Below, piece after piece: positions 2,873 to 46,271 of a stretch of 46,271 nucleotides of DNA; the stretch's first letter is position 1; every line of letters starts with the position of its first letter. The notes beneath the pieces were generated by a model, which made no database searches, was not told the DNA's origin, and saw only the letters and a list, made by a program, of their open reading frames with translations. This DNA is from Candidatus Omnitrophota bacterium (GTDB lineage: Bacteria; Omnitrophota; Omnitrophia; Omnitrophales; Aquincolibacteriaceae), in contig JACPXM010000023.1 of assembly GCA_016196545.1 (NCBI GenBank), positions 1-46,271 on the forward strand, written 5' to 3'. A program made the translations under genes and the position numbers.

Positions 2873-4603
2873 TTACCTTCTTTTTTTTAAAAATTTATCT
2901 ATTTCTTTCAGGGGTAAGGTATTGAGAACATCGTCCTTTGTGAGCCAAGCTTTACGAGCAATGCCGACGCCGTAGCGAAGGTCTTTCATGCCTTCCACGG
3001 AATGCGCGTCCGGATTAATACTGACAAGCACGCCCTTTTTGCGGGCGTAGGAAAGGATTCGCCAGTCAAGGTCAAGTCGGTGAGGATTGGCATTGACTTC
3101 CATGACCACTCCCGCGTCTTTAGCTTCATCGATGAGGGCCGTGAGGTTGACCGCGTAGCCATCGCGCGCCAGAAGCAGGCGGCCCGTGGGATGGCCGACA
3201 AAAGTCAGGAATTTATTTTGAATCGCGCGGCGAATACGCTCGGTCATTTCCTTTTCCGGAATATTGAAACGGCTGTGAACGGAACCAATCACAAAATCAA
3301 ATTGCGAAAGAATGGAATCCGGATAATCGAGTTTTCCGTCCGGGAGAATGTCCGATTCAATGCCGCGGAAAATCCGGATCTTCACGCGCTTTTGAAGCGC
3401 CTCGATCTCTTTCCACTGCAGGCGAAGCCGCGCAGGTTCAAGCCCTTTCGCGTATTTGGCAGACTGGCTGTGATCGGAAATTCCCACATATTCGAGTCCC
3501 AGATCTTGAGCAGCCTCAACCATTTTTTCAAGACTCGCCAGGCCGTCGCTGTAGGTGGTGTGAACGTGAAAGGTGCCCCGCAACTCTGATTCTTCGATGA
3601 ACCTTGGGAAAGGTTTTTTGGCGGCGAATTCAATTTCACCTGTGTTCTCCCGCGCCTCCGGCGGAACATAATGAAAGCCAAGTGTTTCAAAAATCGCAGC
3701 CTCGTCTTTACAAGGGATTAAACGGTTTCCCTTGAAAAGTCCGTATTCATTGATTTTAATCCCCTTCCTTTTGGCAAGGGTGCGCATCGCCACATTGTGT
3801 TCTTTGCTTCCCGTGAAATAATAGAGCGCGGCAGGGAATTCTTTTTCGCTGACAGTTCTCAGGTCGCAATTCGGCCCGGCCCTCAGCGCAATGGAAGATT
3901 TTGTGTCTCCGTGCGCCACAATGGTTTGCGCCTCGGGATACTTCACAAAGGCGTCGTGAACAGCTTTTGAATTATTCGCCGAAACCAGAATATCAATGTC
4001 TTTGATGATTTCCTTGGCGCGGCGAATACTGCCGGCCACTTCAATACGCGTCACACCTTTTTGTTTTTTAAGGTAGGTGACCAGTTTGCTTGCTTCCTGC
4101 ATTCCCACATCAATCAAATAAGTTCCCTGCGTACGCTTCACTCTCTGGATGCCCTCCAGGACTTTCTGCTGGCTTTTGGTGCCGAATCCGTCGAGGTCCA
4201 TGAGCCGGTTTTCCTGGCAGGCATATTCGAGCTCGCCCAGGGATTGGATGCCCAGTTTCTCATAAAGGACTTTCACTTTTTTGGGCCCAAGGCCTGGAAT
4301 TCTAAAAAGCTCAAAAAGTGTTTGCGGGAACGACTTGCGGAGTTCCTCCCAATCCTTGGATTTTCCCTTTTCATAAAGCTCGCGAAGGATTCGCGCAATG
4401 TGGCCGGCACCGATGCCCTTTAATTTTTCCAGCTCACCGGTTGGGACAAGGGCCGCTAAATCGCGGGGGTCCCCTTCCAGGACACGAGCCGCGTTTTCAA
4501 AGGCGCGGACCTTGAAGATATTTTCATTTTTAAGTTCCATCAAAATCGCGATTTCGTGAAGGATTTCAATGGCTTCGGATTTGTCCCGAATAGGCTTTTT
4601 CAC
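2873..4603 (-). CDS. polX: family X DNA polymerase with C-terminal PHP phosphoesterase domain
   Basis: 576 aa. N-terminal HhH repeats (GIGAGHIARIL, IPGLGPKKV), a pol-beta-like core, and PHP motifs HVHTTYSDG and ISDHS. Confidence 0.9.
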   Translation of the reverse strand: MKKPIRDKSEAIEILHEIAILMELKNENIFKVRAFENAARVLEGDPRDLAALVPTGELEKLKGIGAGHIARILRELYEKGKSKDWEELRKSFPQTLFELFRIPGLGPKKVKVLYEKLGIQSLGELEYACQENRLMDLDGFGTKSQQKVLEGIQRVKRTQGTYLIDVGMQEASKLVTYLKKQKGVTRIEVAGSIRRAKEIIKDIDILVSANNSKAVHDAFVKYPEAQTIVAHGDTKSSIALRAGPNCDLRTVSEKEFPAALYYFTGSKEHNVAMRTLAKRKGIKINEYGLFKGNRLIPCKDEAAIFETLGFHYVPPEARENTGEIEFAAKKPFPRFIEESELRGTFHVHTTYSDGLASLEKMVEAAQDLGLEYVGISDHSQSAKYAKGLEPARLRLQWKEIEALQKRVKIRIFRGIESDILPDGKLDYPDSILSQFDFVIGSVHSRFNIPEKEMTERIRRAIQNKFLTFVGHPTGRLLLARDGYAVNLTALIDEAKDAGVVMEVNANPHRLDLDWRILSYARKKGVLVSINPDAHSVEGMKDLRYGVGIARKAWLTKDDVLNTLPLKEIDKFLKKRR

Positions 4604-9375: not shown

Positions 9376-9900
9376 TTATTTCCTTTTTCCCCAAATTTTT
9401 CCCATTTTGCGGAGGAATATTTGATAATCCCGCTCCGCTTGGGCCTTCTGACGCGCGCGCTCTTCCTCGATTTGCTTGGAAAGGATTTCGACACCGTTTT
9501 CGGGAAGCCTCCGGCTGAGTTCGAACTCGGCAAGCTGACGTTTTTTTGCCGCCACCGGCTTCTTTTGAAACCCTGGAAGCGCTTGCTTTAATAATTCCGC
9601 GATTTCTTTTTCCGGTTCAGAAAGTTTGGTGCGGGAATCTAAAATTCCCCTCGCGATTTTTTTTACGCGGGCATTGGACAATCGAAACACCGGTTCCGAA
9701 GAGCTCCCTTCCAAAACTTCAGCAGGGCGAATTCCAAGGGCTTCACAAATCTTAAGAAAGGTGGAAAGCGTGGGGTCTTGTTTCTCTTTTTCGATTTTGG
9801 AAAGATTGGCCTGAGAAATTCCCGTACGCCTGGAGAGTTCTTCCTGGGTTATTCCCTTTTGCAATCTTAAAGGGTAGAGATTTGTTACGCGCGTAGACAC
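9376..9900 (-). CDS. XRE-family HTH transcriptional regulator with long charged C-terminal tail
   Basis: The N-terminus LRLQKGITQEELSRRTGISQANLSKIEKEKQDPTLSTFLKICEALGI is a Cro/C1-type HTH. GTG start. Confidence 0.8.
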   Translation of the reverse strand: MSTRVTNLYPLRLQKGITQEELSRRTGISQANLSKIEKEKQDPTLSTFLKICEALGIRPAEVLEGSSSEPVFRLSNARVKKIARGILDSRTKLSEPEKEIAELLKQALPGFQKKPVAAKKRQLAEFELSRRLPENGVEILSKQIEEERARQKAQAERDYQIFLRKMGKIWGKRK

Positions 9901-9909
9901 TGTAGATAA

Positions 9910-9939
9910 AATATATCAAATTCGATATATTTCTGTCAA
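9910..9939 (-). promoter_or_regulatory. candidate promoter (TTGACA-18-TATATT) overlapping a 20-bp imperfect palindrome operator upstream of the XRE gene
   Basis: The reverse complement of 9934-9939 is TTGACA and of 9910-9915 is TATATT. The palindrome atatatcaaattcgatatat lies at 9911-9930. The -10 ends about 9 nt before the GTG at 9900. Confidence 0.4.
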
Positions 9940-10006
9940 ATTCGTCAGACGCCGGACGAATTCAGAAGAAGGCCCCCTTTCTCCTTGCGTTGAATTTCAA
10001 AACGAT

Positions 10007-11089
10007 CTATCTTCCAACGTATTCATACGAACTATCCACAAGACAGGGCTCGTAGCCGGCGTCGCGGATAAGGCGCTCGAGTTCTCTGGCGGAAAGATCG
10101 ACGGGAGTTTCAGAGCCGGCGTCGTGGACGATTTTTTCATTGAGATTGGTACCGCCGAGGTCATCGATTCCAAAGGAAAGCGCGACTTGGCCCATTTTGA
10201 GGCCGGTGGTAATCCAGTGCGCCTTTAAATGCGGAATATTATCGAAAAGAAGGCGCGAGACGGCGTAGACTTTTAAATCCAAAAAACCGCCGGCCTCACC
10301 GAGCTTTCCCATGGGCGTGTTTTCGGCGTTGTAGGCGAGCGGAATAAAAGAATAAAATCCGTGGGTTTTATCTTGAAGCTCGCGAAGCCGAAGGACGTGG
10401 TCCACGCGGTCTTCGTCGGTTTCAATGTGACCGTAAAGCATGGTAGCGTTCGTGCGAAGGTCGAGTTCATGCGCGATTTCATGAATCGCAAGCCATTCCT
10501 CCGCCGTGATTTTATCTTTGCAGATTTTCTGGCGTATTTTCGGCGCAAAAATTTCCGCACCGCCGCCGGGCATTCCGTCGAGGCCGGCTTGTTTTAATTC
10601 GACGAGGACGTCTCGCCAGCTCATGGCCTCCCGCTTGGCAATGTCGTCGATTTCCGGCGCGGTGAGGGCCTTAATATAAATCGAATCCTTCACCTCACGA
10701 ATCCCTTTCATCATTTGAATATAATAATCCAAACCAAGCTCGGGATTGTGGCCGCCCACGATGTGGACTTCATTGATATTCCATTTTTCAATGCCTTGGC
10801 GCACGCGGTCCTGAATTTCTTCCACAGAAAAAGCGTAGCCACCCTCTTCCCCGGGACGCCGGGCAAAGGCGCAAAAAAGGCAGCGCAGAACACAGACATT
10901 GGTGTGATTTAAATGAAGGTTCACGGAATAAAAAACACGCTCACCGTTTAGCTTGCGGCGAACCCTTTGGGCAAGGGAACCCAGCAGGGCAAGGTCATGG
11001 GTCCGGTAAAGCCTCAGGCCGTCTTCAAAGGTAAGACGCTCGCCCGCTTCGATTTTTTCGTGAATGTCGTTAAAAGGTGAAAAGTCCAT
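10007..11089 (-). CDS. mqnE: radical SAM enzyme of the futalosine menaquinone pathway (MqnE/MqnC family, MqnE-like)
   Basis: The CVLRCLFCAF cluster motif is preceded by NLHLNHTN. The length (360 aa) and N-terminal ERLTFEDGLRLY...LLGSLA pattern are typical of aminofutalosine synthase. MqnE versus MqnC cannot be resolved by eye. Confidence 0.65.
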   Translation of the reverse strand: MDFSPFNDIHEKIEAGERLTFEDGLRLYRTHDLALLGSLAQRVRRKLNGERVFYSVNLHLNHTNVCVLRCLFCAFARRPGEEGGYAFSVEEIQDRVRQGIEKWNINEVHIVGGHNPELGLDYYIQMMKGIREVKDSIYIKALTAPEIDDIAKREAMSWRDVLVELKQAGLDGMPGGGAEIFAPKIRQKICKDKITAEEWLAIHEIAHELDLRTNATMLYGHIETDEDRVDHVLRLRELQDKTHGFYSFIPLAYNAENTPMGKLGEAGGFLDLKVYAVSRLLFDNIPHLKAHWITTGLKMGQVALSFGIDDLGGTNLNEKIVHDAGSETPVDLSARELERLIRDAGYEPCLVDSSYEYVGR

Positions 11090-11096
11090 AAATCTG

Positions 11097-11148
11097 CCGG
11101 TTCCAGGTTGCCGCCGGCAACCTGGAACCGGTAAGTTTTGTTAGGTTT
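11097..11148 (-). repeat. 52-nt element: last codons and stop of ispG plus a 35-nt perfect palindrome. Identical copy at 27905-27956.
   Basis: The reverse complement reads aaacctaacaaaacttaccggttccaggttgccggcggcaacctggaaccgg, the same string as after nuoI. Confidence 0.85.
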
Positions 11149-12208
11149 GGGTCTTTTTTTCTATGTCTTTAAACAGTTCATCCACCAGTTTTTCTTCCTC
11201 CACCACGCGGTGCTGCTTGCCGTCCAAGTAAATCATGCCTTTATCTTTGCCGCCCGTGATACCAAAATCGGATTCATGGGCCTCCCCGGGGCCGTTGACA
11301 ACACAGCCCAGCACAGAAATCGTCAGCGGATCTTTGAGTTTTTGCGCGCGGCTTTCCACTTCGTTGGCCAGTTTTAAAACATCCACTTCCGCGCGGCCGC
11401 AGCTCGGACAGGAAATCACGCGAACGCCTTTGCGAAGCTCAAGCGCTTCCAGAATCATCTTGCCAACTTTGATTTCCTCGACGGACTCTGCCGTCAGAGA
11501 AACTCGAATCGTGTCTCCAATACCCTCCTGAAGCAAGGTTCCAATACCAATGGCATTGTAAATGGAGCCGCGGAGCAAAGTCCCGGCCTCGGTCACACCC
11601 AAATGTAAAGGATAGGGAAAAGTCTGGCTGGCAAGCCGGTAAGCAGCCACCATGGTGGGAACGTTCGAGGCCTTGAGCGAAATAATAATGTCGTGAAAAT
11701 CAAGTTCTTCTAAAATCGCGACGTGGCGCTTCGCGCTTTCAACCAAAGCTTCGGGCGTGGGACCGAATTTTTCCATCAAATCTTTTTCGAGAGACCCGCC
11801 GTTCACGCCGATGCGAATCGGAACGCCCCGCTTTTTTGCCTTTTGCACGATTTCAACCGTATATTCCCTTTTTCCGATATTTCCGGGATTAAGGCGAAGT
11901 TTATCCACGCCTTCATCAAGCGCGATTAAAGCGAAACGGGAATTAAAATGAATGTCGGCGATAAGCGGGATTGTGATTCTCGATTTAATCTTTCCAAGGG
12001 CGCGTGCATCGGCCTCCGTAGGCGTCGCCACACGCACGAGCTCACAGCCGGCCTCGGCGAGCTGGGCAATTTGATCGACCGTCGCTTCCACATCACGCGT
12101 GTGTGTCGTCGTCATGGATTGAAGGCGCACCGGGGCATCGCCCCCTAGCGTGACGCTGCCGATTTTGACTTGTCTTGTCTTTTTTCGTGGTGATTGCATA
12201 GGATTCAT
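11141..12208 (-). CDS. ispG: 4-hydroxy-3-methylbut-2-en-1-yl diphosphate synthase (MEP pathway)
   Basis: 355 aa. The GcpE pattern is present: VRLQSMTTT, RINPGNIG-like LRLNPGNIG, CPSCGR and GCVVNGPGE. Confidence 0.93.
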   Translation of the reverse strand: MNPMQSPRKKTRQVKIGSVTLGGDAPVRLQSMTTTHTRDVEATVDQIAQLAEAGCELVRVATPTEADARALGKIKSRITIPLIADIHFNSRFALIALDEGVDKLRLNPGNIGKREYTVEIVQKAKKRGVPIRIGVNGGSLEKDLMEKFGPTPEALVESAKRHVAILEELDFHDIIISLKASNVPTMVAAYRLASQTFPYPLHLGVTEAGTLLRGSIYNAIGIGTLLQEGIGDTIRVSLTAESVEEIKVGKMILEALELRKGVRVISCPSCGRAEVDVLKLANEVESRAQKLKDPLTISVLGCVVNGPGEAHESDFGITGGKDKGMIYLDGKQHRVVEEEKLVDELFKDIEKKTQT

Positions 12209-35310: not shown

Positions 35311-36327
35311 TTAATAACTCGATTCTTCCAGTTTTACTTTTCCACGAAAAATCCAATAAATACTTACCGTATAAGCCATCACAAGCGGCATGCCGAGTAA
35401 TGCGATCAGCCCCATAATCTGAAGCGTTTTTTGAGAAGAGGCGCTGTTATAAATCGTGAGGCTGAATTCCGAAAAAGGCCTGGAATAAACCAGATTCGGA
35501 TACATGTCGATTCCAAAGAGCGCCATCAAGGTCACCATGGCCAAACACGAAGACAGGAAGGCCTTAAAATCATTTCCTTTGGAAATTTCGCGCGGGATAT
35601 TGGCAATGGCAAGAATATTAAAAAGGGGGACCATAAAAAATACGGGGGAACGTTTTAAAACATCCGACATTTGAGGGGCATAAAGCAGCGTGGCAACCGT
35701 CGCAAGGGCGTAGGTGACCATAAAAAAAATCATTGTGGATTTGATCCATCCTTTGATTTGACGTTGTAACTCCCCTTCGGTTTTTAAAACTCCATAAATG
35801 GCGCCATGCATCATAAAAAGGGAAAGCACAAGGACGCCGATTAAAAGGCTGTAAGGATGAATCAACGTAAAAAAATTCCCCGTAAATTCCTTATCCGGCC
35901 CAAGGGGAATCCCCCACGCCAAATTGCCAAGCGCGATCCCAATGATAAGACTTGAAAGGATGCTTGAGACGCTAAAGCTAAAATCCCAAACATCCTTCCA
36001 CCACTTCATGGGTTGCTTGCTGCGAAATTCAATGGCGACCGCTCGAAAAATAAGGCAAAACAAAAGAAGCATAAAGGCCATATAAAATCCGGAAAATACG
36101 GTGGCATAAACATCCGGGAAAGCCGCAAAAAGCGCCCCCCCTCCCGTGACAAGCCAGACCTCATTACCGTCCCACACAGGACCAATGCTGTTGAGCAGAA
36201 TGCGTCGGTTGCGATCGCTTTTTGTAAACAGATGAAGCGCTCCCACGCCGAGGTCAAAGCCGTCTAAGACGGCATAGCCGGTCATCAAAATGCCGACGAG
36301 TAAAAACCAAAGGGTATTAAGATCCAT
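35311..36327 (-). CDS. cydB: cytochrome bd-type quinol oxidase subunit II
   Basis: 338-aa polytopic protein with the N-terminus LNTLWFLLVGILMTGYAVLDGFDLGVG, directly downstream of cydA. Confidence 0.92.
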   Translation of the reverse strand: MDLNTLWFLLVGILMTGYAVLDGFDLGVGALHLFTKSDRNRRILLNSIGPVWDGNEVWLVTGGGALFAAFPDVYATVFSGFYMAFMLLLFCLIFRAVAIEFRSKQPMKWWKDVWDFSFSVSSILSSLIIGIALGNLAWGIPLGPDKEFTGNFFTLIHPYSLLIGVLVLSLFMMHGAIYGVLKTEGELQRQIKGWIKSTMIFFMVTYALATVATLLYAPQMSDVLKRSPVFFMVPLFNILAIANIPREISKGNDFKAFLSSCLAMVTLMALFGIDMYPNLVYSRPFSEFSLTIYNSASSQKTLQIMGLIALLGMPLVMAYTVSIYWIFRGKVKLEESSY

Positions 36328-36329
36328 TT

Positions 36330-37679
36330 TTAAGCCCGGTGGCCGGAGATTTGCGATTCTTCCGCTCCCGGCCCCTTTTTAATTTTTTGATCCAACAGAT
36401 AAACAAAGAGAATGAAAAGCAGAAGATAGACCACGGAAAACATGAGGATGGAGGCAAGCACCTGTCCCGAACTCACGACACGGGAAACCCCCTGCTCGGT
36501 TCGCAAAAGACCGTAAACAATCCAAGGCTGTCTTCCGATTTCAGCGGTTGCCCAGCCAAGCTGATTGGCAATTTGAGGTCCCAAAACAGAAATCACAAAA
36601 AGCCTTAGCAGCCACTTTTTTTGAAACAAAGTGCCACGCCACCAAAAAAAGCAGCCGAGCAAGCTCAAGACGATGAGGGCAAGACCTATGAGAATCATGC
36701 CATGAAACGCTTGAAACGTAATATTGACGGGCGGCCTGTCCTCCGGCTTGAAGGCTAAGAGCCCCGCCACGGGCTGCTTCGGATTGCCCGAAATGAGAAG
36801 ACTAAGAAAATTTGGAATCGCAATGCCGTATTTAACGGCTCGATTTTTTTCATCGACCCATCCAAAAAGATTCATATCCGCAGGAGCGCTTTCGGGAAAA
36901 TGGGCCTCCATCGCCGCCAACTTTGCTGGCTGATAACGGCTGACGGTCACCGCGCTGGCATGCCCGCTTACCAGCTGAAGGAGAGAAGCCATCGTTGCAA
37001 GGATTAATGCGATTTTGAGGGAGGCCTTGGCAAAATCTTGATGCCTTTGCTTCAATAAATAATAAGCGCTGACACTTAACACGAGCCAAGCGCCCGCCTG
37101 CCAGCAACCCATGATCACATGACTCAGCCGGTCCATGGAAGAAGGGTTAAAGACAAGTTGCCAAAAATCAGTGACTTCCGCCCGCTCAAAACCGTTTGTT
37201 TTCACAAGGTGATAGCCCGCCGGGGTTTGCATCCAGGAATTGGCCACGACAATCCAAATCGCACTGAACATCGATCCCAGCGATACCATGCAGGTGGAAA
37301 AAAAATGCATGCGGGGACCGACCCGGTTCCAGCCGAAGAGCAAAAGCGCCAAAAATCCCGACTCCAGAAAAAAAGCAAAAATCCCTTCCGCGGCAAGCGC
37401 ACTCCCAAAAACATCGCCCACATAGCGGGAATAATAAGACCAGTTGGTTCCAAATTGAAATTCCATGACAATGCCCGAGGCCACACCCATAGAAAAAGTG
37501 AGGCCGAAAATTTTGACCCAGAATTTGGTCATTTGTTCGTAGAGCGGCTGGCGGGTACGAAGATAGGTCGCCTCCATCAAAACAAGCAAAAGTCCAAGGC
37601 CGATGCTGAGCGGCGGGAATATGTAATGAAAGGAGATGGTGAGGGCAAATTGTATCCGGGAAAGCAAGACAAGGTCCAT
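36330..37679 (-). CDS. cydA: cytochrome bd-type quinol oxidase subunit I
   Basis: [23 protein letters not shown] and the [13 protein letters not shown]-loop-proximal motif. Confidence 0.93.
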
Positions 37680-37696
37680 CGAAGCTCCTCAAAACT

Positions 37697-37742
37697 AAAA
37701 GGGCCGGTCGCCTTTTCCATTTCGGCGAGCCCGGCCCTTTTT
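37697..37742 (-). terminator. intrinsic-terminator-like hairpin after the LTXXQ protein gene
   Basis: On the minus strand, aaaagggccgg...ccggccctttt is followed by agttttg. It lies between the 37756 stop and the cydA start. Confidence 0.55.
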
Positions 37743-37755
37743 GGCTGACAACGAC

Positions 37756-38253
37756 TTATTTTTTCTGAAGCCAGAGTTCCTTGGCCTTAGCCATTTGTGC
37801 TTCCGTCAAAACGGCTTTAAGTTTTACATAGGAGGCAAGCGTTTCTTTGGCTGTGGTATTCATGGCAGCACTCATTTGGTCGATCATGGCATTCAATCCT
37901 TCTTGATCTACGGGATTTTGGGCCATCATATGTTTGACATCCAGAGAAAAAATCTTATGGTCTGTCATGGCGCGCAGATAGGCTTTTTTAGATTCCAGCT
38001 TTAAGGTCTTGATGGTGTTCATCTGATCTTCAGTAAGCGCAAGTTCGGTTTGATGATCCAGGAAAAACTCGGCCTTGCTCATGAGTTTGTCGGTGATGGG
38101 ACACATGGATTTGCCCTCGCCCTTTGAAAACTTTCCGCTATAAGGGCATTTTCCCATGGGGCATTGACCTCGGGAGTGATCTGCGAATACGCTCGTTCCT
38201 AAAAGCGTCAGAAAAATTGCGCTCATGAATAACGTTCTCGATGTCTTTTTCAT
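37756..38253 (-). CDS. periplasmic LTXXQ-motif protein (Spy/CpxP/ZraP family) with Cys-rich N-terminal segment
   Basis: Signal peptide MKKTSRTLFMSAIFLTLLGTSVFA, LTEDQ and LTEAQ motifs, and a CPMGKCP...CP segment. Strong AGGAGGGA SD. Confidence 0.7.
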   Translation of the reverse strand: MKKTSRTLFMSAIFLTLLGTSVFADHSRGQCPMGKCPYSGKFSKGEGKSMCPITDKLMSKAEFFLDHQTELALTEDQMNTIKTLKLESKKAYLRAMTDHKIFSLDVKHMMAQNPVDQEGLNAMIDQMSAAMNTTAKETLASYVKLKAVLTEAQMAKAKELWLQKK

Positions 38254-38387
38254 AGTTCCCTCCTGTTTTTTTCTGTGACGATGTACTATGATACCACAGC
38301 AAATTGCGGGGAAAAAACTATTCTTTATTTTTAGGAAGACTGTCGGCTATTTCATAAAGACAGGAGGGTCGGTAGAACAGATGGATT

Positions 38388-39161
38388 TCAGGCTGCTTTA
38401 AAAATCGGTGTGGTTTCTTTCAGGAGATATTCGGAAATCGTGCCGACCTCGGTGACATTGACAAAATCGATGATCGGCGCCTCGTGGAGGCTGCGCACCC
38501 TCAAACTTAAATCCTTAACGACTTCCTGAAAGGAGCGGGAGGAACCCTTAAGCCTTAAGCCAATCACGCAATGGGGGGGTTCTTTTCGTTCCGTATAAAA
38601 AACTTGCCCCAGATAGGCGCACTCGATATCAAGATGACTTGAAAAATAAGCTTGGAGGGCCTCAAGGGTTTTTTGAGGAGGCTGGGCCGGTTGGCCAAGG
38701 ATGAGCTTCTCCCCTTGCCTTAAGTTAAATTCAAGAACTTCAAAAATTTTCCCGCTTCTCAAATCTTCGATTTCCTGCCAGGTGAATTTTTTCCCAACCG
38801 GGGCTCCCGCGTTGAGGATAAAAAGGGATTCGGGTTCTAACATTTCCAAAAAATCTCGGGTCTTCATGCGAACATAGGTTGTTTGCTCTTGAATCGATTG
38901 GGTGAGTATTTTTAGAGAACTGTAGGCGCAAATTTGTTTTTGGCCTTCAATATCAAATAAATTAAATTGAATTTCGCCCCCTTCCACAAACTTGTCTCCA
39001 TCCCCGGAAATTTGAGCCGGCCCAAGCGCCTTTCCTATCACATAAAGTTCTCCTTCTAAAAAGGCACGATAAAAATCCGGAACCGCACTCGGGTTCCGGC
39101 TTGCTTTTTTTATGAGCGCTTCGAGTTTTTCTCCCGGCTCCTCAAATGAAAACCACCCCAT
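38388..39161 (-). CDS. SseB-like protein (hypothetical, two-domain)
   Basis: The 257-aa N-terminus LEALIKKASRNPSAVPDFYRAFLEGELYVIG resembles the SseB N-terminal domain. The assignment is from memory only. Confidence 0.45.
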   Translation of the reverse strand: MGWFSFEEPGEKLEALIKKASRNPSAVPDFYRAFLEGELYVIGKALGPAQISGDGDKFVEGGEIQFNLFDIEGQKQICAYSSLKILTQSIQEQTTYVRMKTRDFLEMLEPESLFILNAGAPVGKKFTWQEIEDLRSGKIFEVLEFNLRQGEKLILGQPAQPPQKTLEALQAYFSSHLDIECAYLGQVFYTERKEPPHCVIGLRLKGSSRSFQEVVKDLSLRVRSLHEAPIIDFVNVTEVGTISEYLLKETTPIFKAA

Positions 39162-39248
39162 GGGCGTCTCCTTTTTCTAGAAGGATACCTGACAGAAATG
39201 ATGAAATCAAAGGTATCGAGAAAAAGGGATTTATTCGATTGAAACTTT

Positions 39249-39407
39249 TTAGAGGGATTGCAGGGCGTTAGCAATCGTATTAAAGCTCACGGCGAGCTGA
39301 TCGCTAAACAAAACAAGAGAGGCGACCAGAACAACAGAAACAACAGAGATAATGAGGGCATATTCAACTAATCCCTGGCCATTTTCCCCTTTAAGAAATC
39401 TTTCCAT
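39249..39407 (-). CDS. flp: Flp/Fap-family type IVb pilin (52 aa; not in the ORF track)
   Basis: MERFLKGENGQGLVEYALIISVVSVVLVASLVLF... contains the Flp processing motif G/xxxxEY followed by a hydrophobic helix. An AAGGGAG SD lies 4 nt upstream of the ATG. Confidence 0.7.
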   Translation of the reverse strand: MERFLKGENGQGLVEYALIISVVSVVLVASLVLFSDQLAVSFNTIANALQSL

Positions 39408-39718: not shown

Positions 39719-39747
39719 TTGACCCTTACTATCGCCTCGCATATAAT
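39719..39747 (+). promoter_or_regulatory. promoter TTGACC-17-TATAAT for tRNA-Asn
   Basis: Hexamers at 39719-39724 and 39742-39747. The tRNA 5' end lies 27 nt downstream of the -10. Confidence 0.6.
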
Positions 39748-39773: not shown

Positions 39774-39846
39774 TCCCCTGTAGCTCAGTTGGTAGAGCGG
39801 CACGCTGTTAACGTGCATGTCCGTGGTTCGAGCCCACGCGGGGGAG
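39774..39846 (+). tRNA. tRNA-Asn (anticodon GTT), CCA not encoded
   Basis: Hand-folded cloverleaf: acceptor tcccctg/cggggga, D arm gctcagttggtagagc, anticodon loop ctGTTaa, T arm cgtgg-ttcgagc-ccacg, discriminator g. Confidence 0.9.
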
Positions 39847-39960
39847 ACTCATAAAAAATGCCGGAGGCCTTAAGGTCTTCGGCATTTTTATTTAGGTTTT
39901 CCCCCGCGAGTCCTGATCTCCCAAAATCCCTAATCAAAATTAGGGCACGCGGGGGAGCCA
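39841..39960. repeat. direct repeat copy 1 (120 bp, identical to 44397-44516); candidate att region
   Basis: Base-by-base comparison of the two copies shows no mismatch. It spans the last 6 nt of the tRNA, the terminator, a dyad-symmetric segment and the last 21 nt of the recombinase ORF. Confidence 0.9.
39853..39889. terminator. bidirectional intrinsic terminator downstream of tRNA-Asn and recombinase 1
   Basis: aaaaaatgccggagg-cctt-aaggtcttcggcattttt: a stem flanked by an A-tract and a T-tract. Confidence 0.7.
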
Positions 39961-41571
39961 ATACATCCTCTCATCAAACCGAGAGGATAACGAAAAACCG
40001 CCAGAGCCAGTCTTTCCAGACTGCTTTGGCGGTTTTTTTATTTCAGGAAGATTGTAAAACTGAATCTTGAGTTTCGACGGCTCCTTGTGATAGACAATCT
40101 TCTTGATAAGCAGGTGCAGTAAATCCCGCTGCTTTTCAAAGGTGAGCTGCGTAAAAACCATCTTGAAATACTTGAAATTGCGAGAAATGGCTTGAGGGTC
40201 AATAATTTTCTGTTGCTCTTGAGCGATTTCTTCGTCCATCTCATTTAATTTTTTCTCCAACACGATCTTTTGTTCTTCCAAAGGCTTTAACTGTTCTTCA
40301 ATCAAAGAAAACCGCTTCCTACCGTAGGCTTTTAACCAGGGCTGCGCTTGTCTTTCGATTTTGGTTAATTGTGCGACGATTCGCTTTCTCTCCGTGCGAA
40401 GACTGGTTAATTTTTGCTTTGAAATCTTGATGGCTTGTTTAACGATCTTCTGAATAAGTCCCTCTCGTTCCGAAAGGAAACTGATTCGGTCAATTACGAG
40501 TTGTTCCAGAGTTCTGGCGGAAACACGTCTGATTTCGCAAGCCGTCCGATCCGCATGACCAACTTTCGTGCATTGATAATACAGGTACTTCTTACCGCCT
40601 TTGATGGAGGAGTTGTGCGTCATTTGTGACCCGCAATGACCGCACCATATCAAACCTGTAAGCAACAGTTGATGAATGTTCTGGCTGATCGAAGTTCGGT
40701 GGACGGTATTGGATTTGATGATCTGTTGGACTCGACTAAATAATTTTGTATTGATGATCCCTTTCCACTGAGCAGGAAACGATTTTTCATGCGTGCCTGT
40801 ACGCCCGATGTAGTAAAGGCTTTTTAGCATGTTCATGATCATGACTTCGGTGAATTTCTTCCCGCCTCGATGAACACCCGATTTCGTCTTCCAAATTTTG
40901 GTTGTATAACCGTTTTTGTTGCAGTAAGTCGCAACAAGATTGCCTGATTGAATCTCAACATACTTGCGGAAGATGAGGCGAGCCAGTGGGATTTCTTCTT
41001 GGTTCGGTTTAAGGACGCCTTTTTCGGTGGGATGGAGATCAAAGCCAAGTGGAATTGAGCCACCGTGAAACAGTCCTTTGCTTGCCCGAAACTGCATTTT
41101 GTCTCTGGTGCGTTCGGATGCCAATTCTCGCTCGTACTGCGCAAACCTTAACACGATGTCGAGATGTAATCTGCCCGTTGATGAAGCCGTGTTAAATTCT
41201 TGCGTTGCGGATGCGAGTTCAATCCCAAGTTTCTGTAATTCCTCCCAAATTTCATAAAAGTGTTTGAGGCTGCGGGTAAAACGGTCAATCGCTTTGACAA
41301 CAATCATGTCGAACTTACCAAGTCTTGCGTCCGCAAGAAGACGCCTAAAAGCAGGACGCACAAGGGTTCCGCCTGAAACATTTCTATCATCGTATCGGGT
41401 TGGGACGAGCGTCCAACCATTTTCCTCATGCAGCCCGATGTAATCTTCGCATTTTTGCCTTTGCGCTTCGATGGTATCAAAAGGACTGATCTCGCTTTTT
41501 TCTTGATCAGATGTTCTGGTGTAAACGACGCATCGGTAATTCTTCTTTGTCTTATCGCTCGATAGAAACAT
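39940..41571 (-). CDS. large serine recombinase (element 1)
   Basis: Catalytic motif VVYTRTSDQ...DTIEAQRQ, resolvase core DMIVVKAIDRFTRS, recombinase domain, Zn-ribbon CGHCGS...CTKVGHADRTAC, and a coiled-coil C-terminus. The last 7 codons (6 sense codons plus the stop) lie in the direct repeat. Confidence 0.9.
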   Translation of the reverse strand: MFLSSDKTKKNYRCVVYTRTSDQEKSEISPFDTIEAQRQKCEDYIGLHEENGWTLVPTRYDDRNVSGGTLVRPAFRRLLADARLGKFDMIVVKAIDRFTRSLKHFYEIWEELQKLGIELASATQEFNTASSTGRLHLDIVLRFAQYERELASERTRDKMQFRASKGLFHGGSIPLGFDLHPTEKGVLKPNQEEIPLARLIFRKYVEIQSGNLVATYCNKNGYTTKIWKTKSGVHRGGKKFTEVMIMNMLKSLYYIGRTGTHEKSFPAQWKGIINTKLFSRVQQIIKSNTVHRTSISQNIHQLLLTGLIWCGHCGSQMTHNSSIKGGKKYLYYQCTKVGHADRTACEIRRVSARTLEQLVIDRISFLSEREGLIQKIVKQAIKISKQKLTSLRTERKRIVAQLTKIERQAQPWLKAYGRKRFSLIEEQLKPLEEQKIVLEKKLNEMDEEIAQEQQKIIDPQAISRNFKYFKMVFTQLTFEKQRDLLHLLIKKIVYHKEPSKLKIQFYNLPEIKKPPKQSGKTGSGGFSLSSRFDERMYWLPRVP

Positions 41572-41591
41572 AAATCACCTCAAAATTTGGC

Positions 41592-41620
41592 TTGACTCTT
41601 TTCTTCATGAGTGTACACTC
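41592..41620 (+). promoter_or_regulatory. candidate promoter TTGACT-16-TACACT with an overlapping 12-bp perfect palindrome (gagtgtacactc) in the divergent region of element 1
   Basis: Hexamers at 41592-41597 and 41614-41619. The palindrome is at 41609-41620. Confidence 0.4.
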
Positions 41621-41632
41621 GTCGTAGACACG

Positions 41633-42292
41633 ATGCAAACCAAAGAATATCAAGGCTCACTCCTCTACACCGCAAAAGACCTCTTGAAAAAAGCAGGCGT
41701 TGGTAGAAGTATCGGCACAAGAACCTTCGAGTATCTGCGGGATAAACTGCAAATTTTGCCGAAGCCTCTCAAGATCGCTCAACCTCATGGGCGTGGGACG
41801 GTCGGTTTTTACCCCGCTGAAACAGTCAAGCTCCTGCAACGACTTGAGAAAGAACGCCAGAAGGGGAAAACTTATCCAGAACTGGCGATTGATTTGAGAC
41901 AGGAAAGCGAGCAAATCCGAGCGAGGGCAAGTGAACTGCGGAAGCAATACGAGGGCGAAAAAAAAGCCTTGCGACGGTTATCGCATGGTTTGATTTCAGA
42001 TCAACATCCCGCCGAAGGTATCAAACCACTAACTAAAAGCAAGGGTGCAATAGGAAGTGACAGCATCCAAACAAAAGAAGCCGTGGCTCTTGAGATCAGG
42101 AATGTGACGGATGATCTGAAGGATGAGATCAAGAGACTTCTGTCTGCCTGGGATGGCAAGGATGTTGGAAAATTGCAAGGCGTCAGAGAGAAAATTGAGG
42201 AATTGGAGCATCTTGAAGGTGTGAGGACTGAGCAGGAGGTTTTTGAGAGGGTCAAAGGAGCGTTGAAGTCCAAAAATGGCAAACGACGGTGA
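41633..42292 (+). CDS. hypothetical DNA-binding/coiled-coil protein (possible MerR-like HTH; candidate directionality factor)
   Basis: The N-terminus YTAKDLLKKAGVGRSIGTRTFEYLRDKLQILPKP...FYPAETVKLLQRLEKERQKG is HTH-like, and the rest is a charged coiled coil. It is divergent from the recombinase. The function is inference only. Confidence 0.4.
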   Translation: MQTKEYQGSLLYTAKDLLKKAGVGRSIGTRTFEYLRDKLQILPKPLKIAQPHGRGTVGFYPAETVKLLQRLEKERQKGKTYPELAIDLRQESEQIRARASELRKQYEGEKKALRRLSHGLISDQHPAEGIKPLTKSKGAIGSDSIQTKEAVALEIRNVTDDLKDEIKRLLSAWDGKDVGKLQGVREKIEELEHLEGVRTEQEVFERVKGALKSKNGKRR

Positions 42293-42336
42293 ACTGTCAC
42301 GAAATGTAAAGGCAATGATAAGGAATTGTAAAGGTT

Positions 42337-42762
42337 ATGGAGAGCATGGAAGTAAAAGACAAATTTTTGACGTTGCGGGCGCAAAATCTCAGCTACGCCA
42401 AAATCGCTGAGCAGCTTGGCGTCAGCAAACAGACCTTAATCGCTTGGAGCAAATCGCTACGAGTCGAAATTGGCAATTTGCGGGCAATTCATCTTGAGGA
42501 ACTGCAAGAAAAATATCACGTGCTTCGAGCAGGAAGATTGGAACTTTTCGGGCAGCAGTTACACACCGTTACGGAAGAACTCAAGAAGCGTACTTATGCA
42601 GACGTTCCCACAGATAAGTTGGTTGAAATGTTTATCAAGTTTGCACAAATTCTTAAACAGGATGACAGCGGTCTTTTGTTTATCGAAGAAAAAATGAATA
42701 ACGAAACTGACATTGAAGACCTTACGATGGATATGAGCCAAAAAAGGAAATGGGAAGCATAA
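42337..42762 (+). CDS. small HTH protein (hypothetical)
   Basis: LRAQNLSYAKIAEQLGVSKQTLIAWSK is a clear HTH, followed by a coiled coil. Confidence 0.55.
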   Translation: MESMEVKDKFLTLRAQNLSYAKIAEQLGVSKQTLIAWSKSLRVEIGNLRAIHLEELQEKYHVLRAGRLELFGQQLHTVTEELKKRTYADVPTDKLVEMFIKFAQILKQDDSGLLFIEEKMNNETDIEDLTMDMSQKRKWEA

Positions 42763-42792
42763 CCAAAACTTTACCGTTTTTTGACCAAGTTT

Positions 42793-42954
42793 ATGCAAAT
42801 CGATTACTCACCGACTGAACGATTGGCTTTGATCGTAGATATTCTCGCCGAAGGCGTGATTGCTCTTTCGGCTGTGATGAATCTCTTGGAAGCCTTTGAT
42901 CGCCTTAAAGTTAAAGAGTTTGTTAAGATTGAAATTATGCGGTCAGACTTATAA
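42793..42954 (+). CDS. 53-aa hypothetical ORF sharing a motif with the ORF upstream of recombinase 2
   Basis: MQIDYSPTERLALIVDILAEGVIAL... versus ...LTPEERLSRIVHILALGAIRLA at 46114-46271 (12 of 20 identical by eye). It is below the ORF-track size cut-off. Confidence 0.35.
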   Translation: MQIDYSPTERLALIVDILAEGVIALSAVMNLLEAFDRLKVKEFVKIEIMRSDL

Positions 42955-43020
42955 ATTTCAAAATGTGAAGGAAATCAATCACAAGCCGATGAATCTTACA
43001 CAGGATAAGGGCTGAAAAGC

Positions 43021-44268
43021 ATGGAAAACTGGGTATGTGTAGGAGAATACTTGAGCCGACAAGAAGCCGAATTTATTCAGTCGCTTCTTAACGGTAAAGG
43101 TATTGAGGCAATGATCTCTGCCGACGATCTCGGTGGAATGAGACCGCATTTATCAATGGGCAAGGCGGTTAGACTTTTGGTTGCTCCAAAAGATTCCGAG
43201 CGAGCAGTCAAGATTATCAAAACTTCAGAAAACATTAAATCTGAGGTCAAACTCCGAAACAAAAGTTATGTCCCAACGTTCATCCTCGTAACAATTTTAA
43301 TCGGACTTGGACTTTTCTTGGGGCGGGAGGTTTATCGGAATTTACATGAAGTAAAAAAGACTTATTATGAAAATGGTTCACTCAAGGCGGAATGGCTTTA
43401 CTCGAATCATCGGTTACACGGAGTGAGCAAAGGATACCATAAAAATGGCGCCTTGAAATTTGAAGCTCTATACAAATTTGGAACCATTAGCGGTCCAATC
43501 AAAACCTATAATTCAAACGGAAAAATTGCTGCAGAATTTCATTCGGTTGATGGAAAAGTTGAAGGTCTTAAAAAAACTTATTATGAAGGTGGTTCGCTGT
43601 GGACGAAGGAAAATTACAAGGCGGATAAATTAAATGGTTTGAGTCGAGAGTATTACCAAGATGGTACGTTGTTGGCGGAATCAAATTATAAAGACGATAA
43701 GCTGGTCGGAGTCTCTAAGACTTTTTACAAGACTGGAACCATAGAATCTGAACTGCGATCGGAGGACGGCATCAGTAAGGCATTGAAAACGTTCTATCCA
43801 TCAGAGAAAACCAGGCTTGAGTGTGTCTATGAGCAGGTCAATGATAAAACGATTGAGAGTTGTAAAGGATTTGCCGAATCAGGAGAGACAGCAAACGGTC
43901 TCGTCAAAGCCTATTTTCCAGATGGCAAAGTGGAATCGGAATTTCAGTATATCGAAGGCATCCCTCACGGAGATTTTAAGAAGTACTATGAGAATGGAAA
44001 CGTGAAGTCAGAAGCTCACTTTGAACATGGCAAGATGCATGGAGCAATGAAGGAATACTACGAATCTGGAAAGTTGTGGCGAGAATGGAATTACAAGATG
44101 GGCATGTTAGACGGCCCGTCTAAGGAGTATTACGAATCTTCTCAGCGGGCCGTTGGCGAAGCTCATTATGTCGATGGGAAATTAGAGGGCAAGGCGGTTT
44201 CCTACGATGAATTTGGAGAAGTTGCCGATCAAGTCACATACAAAGCGGGTGAATTGGTTCAAAGTTAA
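43021..44268 (+). CDS. DUF2007-like N-terminal domain + one TM helix + about 11-12 MORN-variant (YwqK-like) repeats
   Basis: The N-terminus WVCVGEYLSRQEAEFIQSLLNGKGIEAMI resembles DUF2007. The TM helix is VPTFILVTILIGLGLFLG. It is followed by repeats such as KTYYENGSLKAEWLYSNHRLHGVS and KEYYESGKLWREWNYKMGMLDGPS. Confidence 0.7.
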   Translation: MENWVCVGEYLSRQEAEFIQSLLNGKGIEAMISADDLGGMRPHLSMGKAVRLLVAPKDSERAVKIIKTSENIKSEVKLRNKSYVPTFILVTILIGLGLFLGREVYRNLHEVKKTYYENGSLKAEWLYSNHRLHGVSKGYHKNGALKFEALYKFGTISGPIKTYNSNGKIAAEFHSVDGKVEGLKKTYYEGGSLWTKENYKADKLNGLSREYYQDGTLLAESNYKDDKLVGVSKTFYKTGTIESELRSEDGISKALKTFYPSEKTRLECVYEQVNDKTIESCKGFAESGETANGLVKAYFPDGKVESEFQYIEGIPHGDFKKYYENGNVKSEAHFEHGKMHGAMKEYYESGKLWREWNYKMGMLDGPSKEYYESSQRAVGEAHYVDGKLEGKAVSYDEFGEVADQVTYKAGELVQS

Positions 44269-44396
44269 AAATCTCTGCCCCATCTCTCCCCCCTCTTAAC
44301 CCTATCATCTGCAATAAGTTGCACCTCTCCCTTCGCACGTCTGAGAATTTCAAATTGAAACTCGTCTTGAAATGTGTTTTGATCTGACAGTGTCAC

Positions 44397-44516
44397 GGGG
44401 AGACTCATAAAAAATGCCGGAGGCCTTAAGGTCTTCGGCATTTTTATTTAGGTTTTCCCCCGCGAGTCCTGATCTCCCAAAATCCCTAATCAAAATTAGG
44501 GCACGCGGGGGAGCCA
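44397..44516. repeat. direct repeat copy 2 (120 bp, identical to 39841-39960)
   Basis: See copy 1. It is preceded by gtcac, an imperfect mimic of the tRNA 3' stem cacgc. Confidence 0.9.
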
Positions 44517-46154
44517 TTTTGTACGCTCATCAAAACTGACCTTGTCGCCTTCTACCTCGAGATCAAGCTCGGGGAGAGGGCGCAGGGTCATTTTGATTTT
44601 AGAGGGGTCTTGGTTGTAAATGATCTCTTTGATGAGGAGTCTTAGCCGGTCTTTCTTTTCGTTGGGCGTGAGTTTATCAAACACTGCGTCGAAGCGCTGG
44701 AGATTGTGGCGAATCACATCAGCGTCAATCATCCGGCCTTCAAGGCTTTGGAGCGACAGTTCAATATCGGCAAGCCTTTCTTCTGCCTTTTGTTTCTTTT
44801 CCTGCAGTTCGTCCAGCCGGTCTGTAATAAAGCTGTTGCGGGAACCGTTCTTGTGAGCGCCTAAAGCATTGACCAGTTTCTTGGCTTCTTCGTCGGTTTT
44901 ACGGATTTCTTCCTGAACACGCTTTCTGTCCTCCCTTAATGGCCCAAAGGCTTTGACCGAGGATTCCTGCGCATCTTTCACAATGGCTTCGACTACTTTC
45001 TTATTCTGACCGAGAAATGACAATCGCTTCACGATCAGATTTTCAAGCTCTTTCGCGGGAGCGCTTTTGACGGAGCAAGCGTCTTTGTCATTCTTATTAA
45101 CCTTCGTGCATTTGTAATAAAAATATTTCCTTCCTCTTGAGTAAGCAAAGTTAGGCGTCATAAAAGACGCGCATACTTTGCAATGCACAAGTCCCTTCAA
45201 GAGGAAATCATGTTTATCCTGATTTGCCGAATGATGAGTGCCGTTATTTTGGCTGAGAAGCTTCTGGACTCGGTTGAAAAGCGTTTCATCAACAATGGCC
45301 TTATGCTCGCCGGGAAAAAAATTGTCTTTATACCGAAGCTGTCCGATATAAAAAGGATTTCTCAGGATTTGGGCAAGATTGGACTTATTATACCGGCTGC
45401 CGCCTTTCTCAAGCCCTGCCTTGTTAATCCATTGTTTTAGGCGGTAGCCGCGTTCATTCAATCGTTTGGCCGTCTTGCCAAGGGATTTTTCTTTGAGATA
45501 AAAAAGAAATTGATCTTCTGCCTGCCTGGCTTCGCTTTTATTCAGGACCAGCTTCCGGTTTGCCGAATCAATGTCATAGCCAATGACCGGCATTCCACCT
45601 GCCCATTTGCCTTTTTGAATCATGGCGATGCGTTTGTCCCGCGTCCGTTCGCTGACCAGCTCGCGCTCAAACTGAGCAAATCCCATCAGCATGGTTTGGA
45701 AAATCCGCCCGATTGAAGTCGAGGTATCGAATTGCTGAGTGACGGAAACAAAAGCAACGCCGTGCTTATCAAAAAGATCGAGGATTTTGACGAAGTCTTT
45801 GATGTTCCGACTCATGCGGTCGTATTTGTAAGCCACAACTATCTGAACTTTTCCCTGACGGATGGCGGCAAGAAGATGTTGCAAGGCGGGCCGATTCGTA
45901 TTGCCGCCGGAATAAGCAGGATCGTCAAAGCGTTCGGGGTAAAGCTGCCAGCCTTCGGCCTTCCGGCTCTTGATAAACGACTCGCAGGATTCCCTTTGCG
46001 CATCGAGTGAAGTAAAATCTGAATTGAGATTTTCATCCGTGGATTTGCGGGTATAAACAGCACAACGCTTGATTTCTAGTTTTTGGCTCACAGCTTTGTC
46101 CCTGGGTTTTGTGTTAGGGAGTGTGAGCATAGCCTTTAAATTTTGGACTGTCAA
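44496..46154 (-). CDS. large serine recombinase (element 2)
   Basis: CAVYTRKSTDENLNSDFTSLDAQRESC, resolvase core QIVVAYKYDRMSRN, Zn-ribbon CKVCAS...CTKVNKNDKDAC, and a coiled coil. The start is either TTG at 46154 or ATG at 46130. It is clearly diverged from recombinase 1 except for the identical last 21 nt. Confidence 0.9.
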   Translation of the reverse strand: MTVQNLKAMLTLPNTKPRDKAVSQKLEIKRCAVYTRKSTDENLNSDFTSLDAQRESCESFIKSRKAEGWQLYPERFDDPAYSGGNTNRPALQHLLAAIRQGKVQIVVAYKYDRMSRNIKDFVKILDLFDKHGVAFVSVTQQFDTSTSIGRIFQTMLMGFAQFERELVSERTRDKRIAMIQKGKWAGGMPVIGYDIDSANRKLVLNKSEARQAEDQFLFYLKEKSLGKTAKRLNERGYRLKQWINKAGLEKGGSRYNKSNLAQILRNPFYIGQLRYKDNFFPGEHKAIVDETLFNRVQKLLSQNNGTHHSANQDKHDFLLKGLVHCKVCASFMTPNFAYSRGRKYFYYKCTKVNKNDKDACSVKSAPAKELENLIVKRLSFLGQNKKVVEAIVKDAQESSVKAFGPLREDRKRVQEEIRKTDEEAKKLVNALGAHKNGSRNSFITDRLDELQEKKQKAEERLADIELSLQSLEGRMIDADVIRHNLQRFDAVFDKLTPNEKKDRLRLLIKEIIYNQDPSKIKMTLRPLPELDLEVEGDKVSFDERTKWLPRVP

Positions 46155-46271
46155 TATTGGCTTTCAAAACGGGCCTATTCTTTTCGCTGTCAGCCAGGCG
46201 GATTGCTCCCAAGGCTAGGATATGCACAATCCGGGAAAGCCTCTCCTCCGGCGTGAGATCATCGGGATCAT
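46114..46271 (-). CDS. partial small ORF upstream of and overlapping the recombinase 2 start
   Basis: The open frame reads DPDDLTPEERLSRIVHILALGAIRLADSEKNRPVLKANIDSPKFKGYAHTP*. The N-terminus lies outside the window. Confidence 0.35.
   Translation of the reverse strand, partial: DPDDLTPEERLSRIVHILALGAIRLADSEKNRPVLKANIDSPKFKGYAHTP

Follow-up and report, generated by a model that had tools for sequence, protein, structure and literature searches.

How do two different large serine recombinases (LSRs) come to lie head to tail behind a single tRNA gene? The question is raised by one end of a 46,271-base-pair (bp) contig of Candidatus Omnitrophota bacterium (JACPXM010000023.1), which was analysed in its entirety and is called the window here. 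In it, a tRNA-Asn(GTT) gene is followed by a 120-bp sequence and a minus-strand LSR gene, and further downstream by the same 120-bp sequence and a second minus-strand LSR gene. A preliminary description of the locus took each 120-bp sequence as the left end of an element. The core observation is real; the boundaries of the elements and the logic of their attachment are revised here. In the reading that we favour, and hold to be probable though well short of certain, two unrelated integrative elements, each with its own LSR, lie side by side downstream of tRNA-Asn, each at a short copy (stub) of the tRNA 3′ end, and the module that carries the stub is a feature of the locus.

One exact repeat and two recombinases

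The 120-bp direct repeat is exact (repeat search, alignment and BLAST), its two copies are spaced 4556 bp apart (Table 1), and it is not explicable by chance. Each copy has GGGGAG at its start and GGGGAG-CCA at its end, with a core-to-core period of 111 bp, and each is then followed by a complete minus-strand LSR gene; the architecture of module and recombinase noticed earlier does occur twice. The 12-nucleotide (nt) sequence CACGCGGGGGAG forms the end of the tRNA gene (39835-39846), where it covers the acceptor strand and the discriminator G together with 4 nt of the T-stem. The window has three copies of it, all on the plus strand (at 39835 in the tRNA, at 39946 and at 44502), and three or more matches were obtained in none of 100 shuffles. 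This is the pattern of tandem islands: behind an intact tRNA gene, each island has one displaced 3′ fragment, oriented like the gene. The final seven codons of both LSR genes (WLPRVP and stop) lie inside the repeat, where the plus strand reads TTAGGG-CACGCGGGGGAG-CCA, a point that the preliminary description had missed. A promoter-like sequence, TTGACC-17-TATAAT, lies upstream of the tRNA gene at 39719-39747.

Table 1. Positions of the features of the tRNA-Asn locus in the window (aa, amino acids; HTH, helix-turn-helix)
Feature	Position	Strand	Description
tRNA-Asn(GTT)	39774-39846	+	ARAGORN; Rfam RF00005, 64.3 bits; intact, own terminator downstream
Repeat copy 1	39841-39960	+	core GGGGAG at 39841-39846 is the tRNA end
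Repeat copy 1, inner parts	39854-39889		bidirectional terminator hairpin (terminator scan), then a second hairpin
Stub M1	39946-39957	+	CACGCGGGGGAG; then CCA at 39958-39960, antisense of the LSR1 Trp codon
LSR1	39940-41571	-	large serine recombinase, 543 aa; integrated form ends ...FDERMYWLPRVP and stop
Element 1	39958-44402		4,445 bp, from the LSR1 CCA to the core GGGGAG at 44397-44402; recombinase-defined
orf219	41633-42292	+	partner gene found in every LSR1-type element examined (tblastn: L001-L005, L168/L169, L170; alignment A4)
orf141	42337-42762	+	small HTH protein; weak Pfam HTH_23 and HTH_Tnp_1 matches, below gathering scores; PHROG DNA-binding families
orf57	42781-42954	+	N-terminal 25-29 aa conserved in L001, L004, L005 and L170 (tblastn)
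orf415	43021-44268	+	cargo: DUF2007 and MORN-variant repeats; Pfam MORN_2, E = 3.5e-43
P arm of attP and "tail exon"	44265-44402	-	element 1 end opposite to LSR1, directly left of repeat copy 2; LP-VTLSDQNTFQDEFQFEILRRAKGEVQL..., 43 codons after LP, then stop
Repeat copy 2	44397-44516	+	core GGGGAG at 44397-44402 is attR of element 1, four Gs as in attP
Repeat copy 2, inner parts	44410-44445		terminator
Stub M2	44502-44513		then CCA at 44514-44516, antisense of the LSR2 Trp codon
LSR2	44496-46154	-	large serine recombinase; integrated form ends ...FDERTKWLPRVP and stop
Element 2, left part	44514-46271		runs off the contig end
Junction J1			tRNA.GGGGAG.ACTCAT...; unoccupied attB-like site
Junction J2			stub M1.GGGGAG.CCA-LSR1; attL-like
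Junction J3			P arm.GGGGAG.ACTCAT...; attR of element 1
Junction J4			stub M2.GGGGAG.CCA-LSR2; attL-like

Both proteins are, to judge from their domains, complete large serine recombinases. Domain searches returned the full LSR set in each, namely Resolvase (PF00239; E = 8e-32 for LSR1 and 5e-37 for LSR2), Recombinase (PF07508) and Zn_ribbon_recom (PF13408), the latter two above their gathering scores, and both match a PHROG integrase family (LSR1 to PHROG 95, E = 1.8e-105). Alignment A3 shows the YTRxS motif with invariant R19 and S21, and four cysteines (C310, C313, C334 and C345) are likewise invariant in it. The Zn ribbon is followed by some 100 aa of Lys/Glu-rich sequence, as expected of a coiled-coil insert. 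The lengths first given were 543 and about 545-552 aa; LSR1 has 543 aa, and LSR2 has 552 aa from a TTG at 46154 or 544 aa from an ATG at 46130. The ATG is the likelier start, because a relative with 96% identity (P0104) begins at the corresponding Met.

LSR1 and LSR2 are 36% identical over 535 aa, which rules out a simple duplication of one element. Each has much closer relatives elsewhere, at 65% identity for LSR1 (P0002, P0003) and 96% for LSR2 (P0104), and the earlier conclusion that these are two different elements is upheld. A search of IMG/VR found distant LSR relatives only (at most 37%) and no sign that elements 1 and 2 are phages.

The attachment site and the crossover

Relatives of the two enzymes carry a C-terminal FDERxxWL[P/R] motif, at identities of 49-65% among the LSR1 relatives and up to 96% among those of LSR2. 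Past this motif, 20 of 51 homologues continue in peptides such as REDSNLG, RLGSNQ and GQDSNLR; in the loci that were checked as DNA, such continuations correspond to the T-loop and acceptor arm of a tRNA translated in antisense. All nine relatives examined at the DNA level have an LSR frame that overlaps a minus-strand tRNA gene by 22-145 nt, with the Trp codon TGG as the antisense of the tRNA's CCA. The fusions are to tRNA-Asn in L002, L004 (from an Omnitrophota metagenome-assembled genome, MAG), L006 (Desulfuromonadales) and L013 (Chloroflexota), and to tRNA-Gln in L007, L008, L017, L018 and L046. Two further Omnitrophota MAG loci (L003:2355-2652 and L005:11600-11851) have an LSR fusion to a tRNA-like 3′ end; here a group I intron (Rfam RF00028, 73-82 bits) interrupts the tRNA gene, which ARAGORN does not call. 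Read-through peptides like GYDLTPITRRVGLS in P0005, P0006, P0011, P0013 and P0106 suggest that such an intron-bearing tRNA is a recurrent target.

Free forms are also found among the relatives. The excised-type form P0003 (on L001) reads LSR-TGG/CTCCCC/GTGACACTG, with the in-frame continuation VTLPNQTTFTDVFQYQLLRKARGEVEL. P0008 is encoded on two independent assemblies, L168 (11,423 bp) and L169 (11,405 bp), that are circular permutations of one another at 100% identity and whose ends overlap by 141 and 123 nt; read in this way they are one circle of 11,282 bp, and its LSR continues into a homologous tail. What is seen of recombination is its end products, namely integrated forms and this circle. 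When J2 of the window (LSR1...TATTGG/CTCCCC) is joined to J3 (CTCCCC/GTGACACTG), the attachment site of the free L001 element (attP) is obtained, identical over 27 nt.

In WLP, Leu-Pro is encoded by the core CTCCCC and Trp by TGG, the antisense of CCA, and the frame continues into a tail in L001 and in the circular L168/L169. The attP thus lies within the LSR frame, inside its 3′ end, and for the clade of both LSRs this placement is supported by comparison with relatives; its P′ half-site corresponds to the codons FDERxxW. In five LSR1-type attPs the TC of CTCCCC is a centre of dyad symmetry: 12-16 of 27 positions pair there, where neighbouring centres give 5-9 and chance would give about 7. 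Conserved outer blocks TTTGAT and ATCAAA lie around this centre, and the shape fits the expected form of an LSR attP. As with attL and attR sites of LSRs, the arms of attP and of the target site (attB) have only the 6-nt core in common; attP and the tRNA share only GGGGAG and CCA. J3 has four Gs, as in attP, and J1, J2 and J4 have five, as in the tRNA. These counts fit strand exchange at the GA of GGGGAG, the most likely position, which precedes the discriminator by one base. Integration there brings in no more of the tRNA than G and CCA, and does not regenerate its 3′ half.

The element boundaries move accordingly from those first drawn. Element 1 had been taken as the module plus about 4.5 kb; its recombinase-defined extent, read from the attP forms of L001 and L168/L169 and from the attL and attR sites of L002 and L004, is 39958-44402. 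A circle junction joining 44396 to 39847 had been expected, and this is not borne out by the relatives' free forms, which join the LSR TGG directly to CTCCCC and the tail. The attP expected for element 1 would instead join about 44400 to about 39956 as GGATGTATTGG-CTCCCC-GTGACACTG, also written GGATGTATTGG-CTCCCC-GTGACACTGTCAGATC, and the reciprocal stub.B′ junction left by its excision is predicted to read ...TTAGGGCACGCGGGGGAG-ACTCATAAAAAATGCC....

The module and the history of the array

Both elements lie downstream of tRNA-Asn, as first noted. Neither occupies the tRNA gene itself, which keeps its own terminator, and each abuts a 12-nt stub closing a 111-bp module. Both elements do use the same kind of site, with a stub and a core at each. 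The 111-bp unit folds into a bidirectional terminator and a second, long hairpin that closes on the stub, the stub being the copy of the last 12 nt of the tRNA (RNA fold z = -8.1). Most likely, this module is a property of the locus and not of the elements, because the free forms lack it and a module-like stretch in a relative lies outside the element. In L001 and L168/L169 no module separates the LSR TGG from CTCCCC and the tail. In L002 the element runs straight into the tRNA, and beyond attR lies an unoccupied stretch with the same architecture, made up of a terminator, a hairpin and 16 nt that match exactly the end of that host's own tRNA-Asn (fold z = -9.7).

These data bear on the scheme in which each element consists of module, LSR and cargo, as the preliminary description had it. 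The 120-bp repeat would then be an att repeat and attP would be P arm.GGGGAG.module, with newcomers inserting at the tRNA 3′ end and the newest beside the tRNA, as in tyrosine-integrase arrays. We regard this as unlikely, even though it reproduces all four junctions of the window without prior tandem modules, accommodates the G-run counts equally well and has a parallel in the tandem LSR genes of L085. First of all, no module stands between P arm and LSR in the free forms of L001 and the circular L168/L169. Second, element 2 is 89% identical in DNA to the L083 element from the contig end to window 44508, which is the LSR-proximal core edge; there the homology ends, the flanks beyond are unrelated (blastn), and this close relative has no module. 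Third, the module-like stretch of L002 lies beyond attR. Fourth, modules with 100% identity over 111 bp are unexpected on elements whose LSRs are 36% identical. Finally, the reaction needed resembles attR × attB, which, given the site selectivity of LSRs, is not one of their canonical reactions.

With the module assigned to the locus, J2 and J3 of element 1 imply recombination with a stub.B′ site, that is, with the boundary of two adjacent modules. In the reading we favour, the locus would have carried two tandem modules beforehand, and each element would have integrated at one stub by canonical attP × attB-like recombination. To judge from the relatives, the LSR frame of an integrated element runs antisense into the target, and that of an excised one is joined to the conserved tail from the other end of the element. 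There are several possible routes to two identical modules: slippage or unequal exchange between the flanking 12-nt repeats before integration, an attL-type exchange between chromosomes with and without element 1, or homologous insertion of a module-bearing circle. For the module itself three origins are conceivable: the remains of an earlier island that targeted the tRNA, a tRNA copy that has degenerated, or a structure maintained by selection. As regards decay from a tRNA, its matches to the tRNA are limited to 6 nt at the 5′ end and 12 nt at the 3′ end, and Rfam returned nothing for the module beyond chance microRNA matches.

Several points weigh against this reading. First, two modules with 100% identity need a recent duplication or some other non-canonical step. 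Second, the stub, as putative attB, has only 12 nt in common with the tRNA half-site. Third, genome and metagenome searches found no empty or singly occupied version of the tRNA-Asn locus. Fourth, the sequence data show no activity: neither excision of element 1 as a circle nor an expressed tail is seen. Finally, an assembler could mis-thread a 120-bp repeat.

The last of these points can be taken further, to an array that is itself an artefact. The repeat would be a collapsed node, the chromosome would read tRNA-module-LSR2, and element 1 with one module would be a 4,556-bp circle or reside at another module-bearing locus. An exact repeat shorter than many assembly k-mers or read lengths gives a graph with two ways in and two ways out that permits both threadings, and relatives do exist as circles; those circles, on the other hand, have no module. 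Moreover, the overlap of J2 (stub.LSR1) and of J3 (P arm.B′) with other junctions is only 12-15 nt, so both must occur in reads, and together they imply recombination of element 1 with stub.B′, so that two adjacent modules existed somewhere. A repeat of 120 bp would also normally be bridged by paired reads or at k = 141, and on balance we think it improbable that the array is spurious.

It is also conceivable, and in our view very unlikely, that element 1 first entered at the true tRNA end beside a resident element 2, and that a later exchange placed the second module between tRNA and LSR1. Either a shared 15-nt sequence, CACGCGGGGGAGCCA, or the 111-bp module could have served for the exchange, which would have involved sister or incoming chromosomes and proceeded through short homology, homologous recombination or an LSR-mediated attL × attL reaction. 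A rare non-canonical event is required here, and the intermediate, a tRNA-LSR1 fusion, is not seen. What such a history would explain is J3, where the P arm is joined to the tRNA's own downstream sequence, without prior tandem modules, and by the same mode of integration as in L002 and L004, where the LSR is fused directly to the tRNA.

Stubs are also occupied elsewhere in the family where no tRNA is nearby, as in L083/L084 (a 21-nt stub) and at the first LSR of L085 (a degenerate T-arm stub). L085 (12.5 kb; segments 1-872, 3540-3640 and 9885-11546) holds two LSR2-type genes in the same orientation, with 92% DNA identity and homology that ends at the core; between them lies an LSR1-type tail preceded by TGG-CTCCCC, and the locus looks like another stacked or hybrid array. 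The exact stub and hairpin pattern, TCAAAATTAGGGCACGCGGGGGAG, had no match in the genome and metagenome collections. In the window, 39837-39908 forms an imperfect 70-nt palindrome centred on the terminator loop, in which the tRNA 3′ end CGCGGGGG pairs with CCCCCGCG at 39899-39906; the latter could pair instead with the stub at 39949-39956, and two alternative structures are possible.

Recombinase tails, known systems and gene content

Placing attP within the recombinase frame has a consequence for the protein itself. On excision the tail at the far end of element 1 comes into frame with LSR1, and the predicted circle form has 583 aa. Homologous tails are fused to the LSR in L001 and the circular L168/L169; in L002 and L004, where the element is integrated, they stand at its far end. 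In four of these tails (window, L001, L002 and L004) the LSR frame is open for 33-60 codons and the other two frames are closed; the differences among them number 58, 47 and 93 at codon positions 1, 2 and 3, and conservation reaches well past the roughly 25 bp expected of a half-site. The tail thus looks translated rather than serving as a mere binding site. In the LSR2-type attP forms (L085, L086) the tail has 9 aa only, so a long tail is not universal in the family. After integration only the segment past WLP is exchanged, and all Pfam domains are kept in the integrated copies.

Because attP lies inside the reading frame, the recombinase would exist as two isoforms, and we tentatively suggest that these report the state of the element: a tail-less integrated form with a tRNA-antisense or RVP end, and a circle form with 33-60 aa of tail. 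The tail might then act as a built-in switch for directionality or copy control, a bacterial serine counterpart of the logic of archaeal "suicidal" integrases, and the host-side stubs with their terminator might be landing pads that spare the functional tRNA. This proposal is speculative, and we would put it as a possibility rather than an expectation. In some relatives the excised form is possibly extended by a ParB-type HTH domain (P0015). On L170:10001-12031, P0015 has about 130 aa past WLP that include a ParB-type HTH (PF17762); P0162 has the same domain, and such family members are 670-750 aa long.

How do these elements compare with known systems? Like phiC31, Bxb1, A118/LI and TP901-1, they encode LSRs of three-domain architecture with the catalytic Ser in YxRxS and a Zn ribbon with a coiled-coil insert. 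The short dyad-symmetric attP (about 48 bp) with its central dinucleotide and the attL/attR sites without a long target repeat are likewise those of phiC31-type enzymes. They differ from these in their target, namely the extreme 3′ end of the gene for tRNA-Asn (tRNA-Gln in a sister clade) or a copy of that end displaced from the gene, and in an attP that lies in the enzyme's own reading frame, where the Trp codon doubles as CCA and the C-terminus changes between integrated and excised states. The tandem tRNA and transfer-messenger RNA (tmRNA) islands described by Islander/TIGER have the same layout of a tRNA and displaced 3′-end copies in one orientation, with one integrase island each. In those arrays, however, the integrases are tyrosine enzymes and those of the window are serine enzymes; the islands here also have no regenerated tRNA 3′ half, and a 111-bp module parts the intact tRNA from the first island. 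SSV-type "suicidal" integrases of archaeal viruses and plasmids share an att site within the integrase gene and a frame altered by integration. Those are tyrosine enzymes whose gene is split in two, whereas the bacterial serine enzymes here lose or swap only a C-terminal tail of 33-60 aa and keep all catalytic and DNA-binding domains. Tycheposons and similar tRNA-adjacent cargo islands are also small and lie beside tRNA genes, a minority with an LSR; element 1, on the other hand, has no recognisable replication module, and its host is not Prochlorococcus.

In the literature that we found, LSR targeting of a tRNA 3′ end is barely described, as the preliminary description had supposed; comparison of the loci indicates that among relatives it is widespread. 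Of 937 tycheposon-type elements, 27 carry an LSR, and the att anatomy of these is not described (bioRxiv 10.1101/2020.12.28.424599). A large LSR survey classes targets by the disrupted protein-coding gene and never mentions tRNA (PMC10083194), a Paracoccus phage with a serine recombinase has a predicted integration at tRNA-Met (PMC6536676), and integrases with att inside their own gene are given as exclusively archaeal tyrosine enzymes (PMC8371274). A tRNA-island database paper states that serine integrases are not known to target tRNA 3′ ends. An LSR whose attP lies in its own reading frame was not described in the papers that our search, of incomplete scope, brought up, and a prior description elsewhere is possible. 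Other LSR lineages may use tRNA-Asn in a different arrangement. The predicted viral contigs L088, L095, L096, L099, L125, L136 and others from IMG/VR carry distant LSRs (30-35%) with a same-strand tRNA-Asn 1-4 kb upstream of the LSR start, mostly at about 1.2 kb, and the arrangement in L010 and L023 (Phycisphaerales) is similar.

The comparison documents an LSR branch that targets the very 3′ ends of tRNA-Asn or tRNA-Gln, with junction-level evidence from many uncultivated lineages, among them Omnitrophota, Desulfuromonadales and Chloroflexota MAGs and further relatives named Elusimicrobia. Its design is compact, the Trp codon serving as CCA, the core as Leu-Pro and the P′ half-site as FDERxxW. 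Pairs of attP and attB in which a near-universal tRNA end is the attB could be of interest for LSR-based genome engineering in non-model bacteria, and a state-dependent C-terminus offers a testable idea on directionality control. Island finders that need a tyrosine integrase or a disrupted protein gene would miss this class and its tandem arrays.

Element 1 contains five genes: LSR1, orf219, orf141, orf57 and orf415. Its G+C content is 41-47%, against about 50% across most of the upstream 38 kb. It had been called a minimal element, and this is borne out by searches of Pfam, PHROGs and NCBIfam, in which its cargo matched no phage structural, conjugation or transfer, or replication family; Phage_integrase had no match in the four element 1 open reading frames (ORFs) scanned against Pfam, which were those other than orf57. 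The product of orf219 has a weak MerR-like HTH and a coiled coil (MerR_1 is matched by three of eight members, best E = 0.002) and no significant match among solved structures; we infer that it is a candidate regulator or directionality factor. The orf415 product also gave a weak NCBIfam match to the LIC20035 adhesin family. Element 2 runs off the window, as first noted, the window being the full contig.

Cargo varies around the same core among LSR1-type relatives: L001 has a SecY homologue, L168 a type I restriction-modification system, and L002 a KAP NTPase with an HNH protein. LSR2-type relatives carry a methylase, Vsr and PDDEXK set, and a MazE-like protein with an M50-like protease. The SecY homologue of L001 (L001:2627-4036) is full-length (469 aa), an unusual cargo for a mobile element, and lies in a small LSR1-type element in attP configuration; the L168/L169 circle encodes a trypsin-like protease besides its restriction-modification system.

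Exact-protein look-ups with LSR1 and with the SseB-like protein encoded upstream of the tRNA returned no record, and a metagenome scan with the latter found no relatives; its only useful homologue (L087) is 68% identical, non-syntenic and without a tRNA. The region upstream of the tRNA (35311-39407) encodes, besides this protein, subunits I and II of cytochrome bd oxidase and a 52-aa ORF that, by eye only, resembles a Flp-type pilin.

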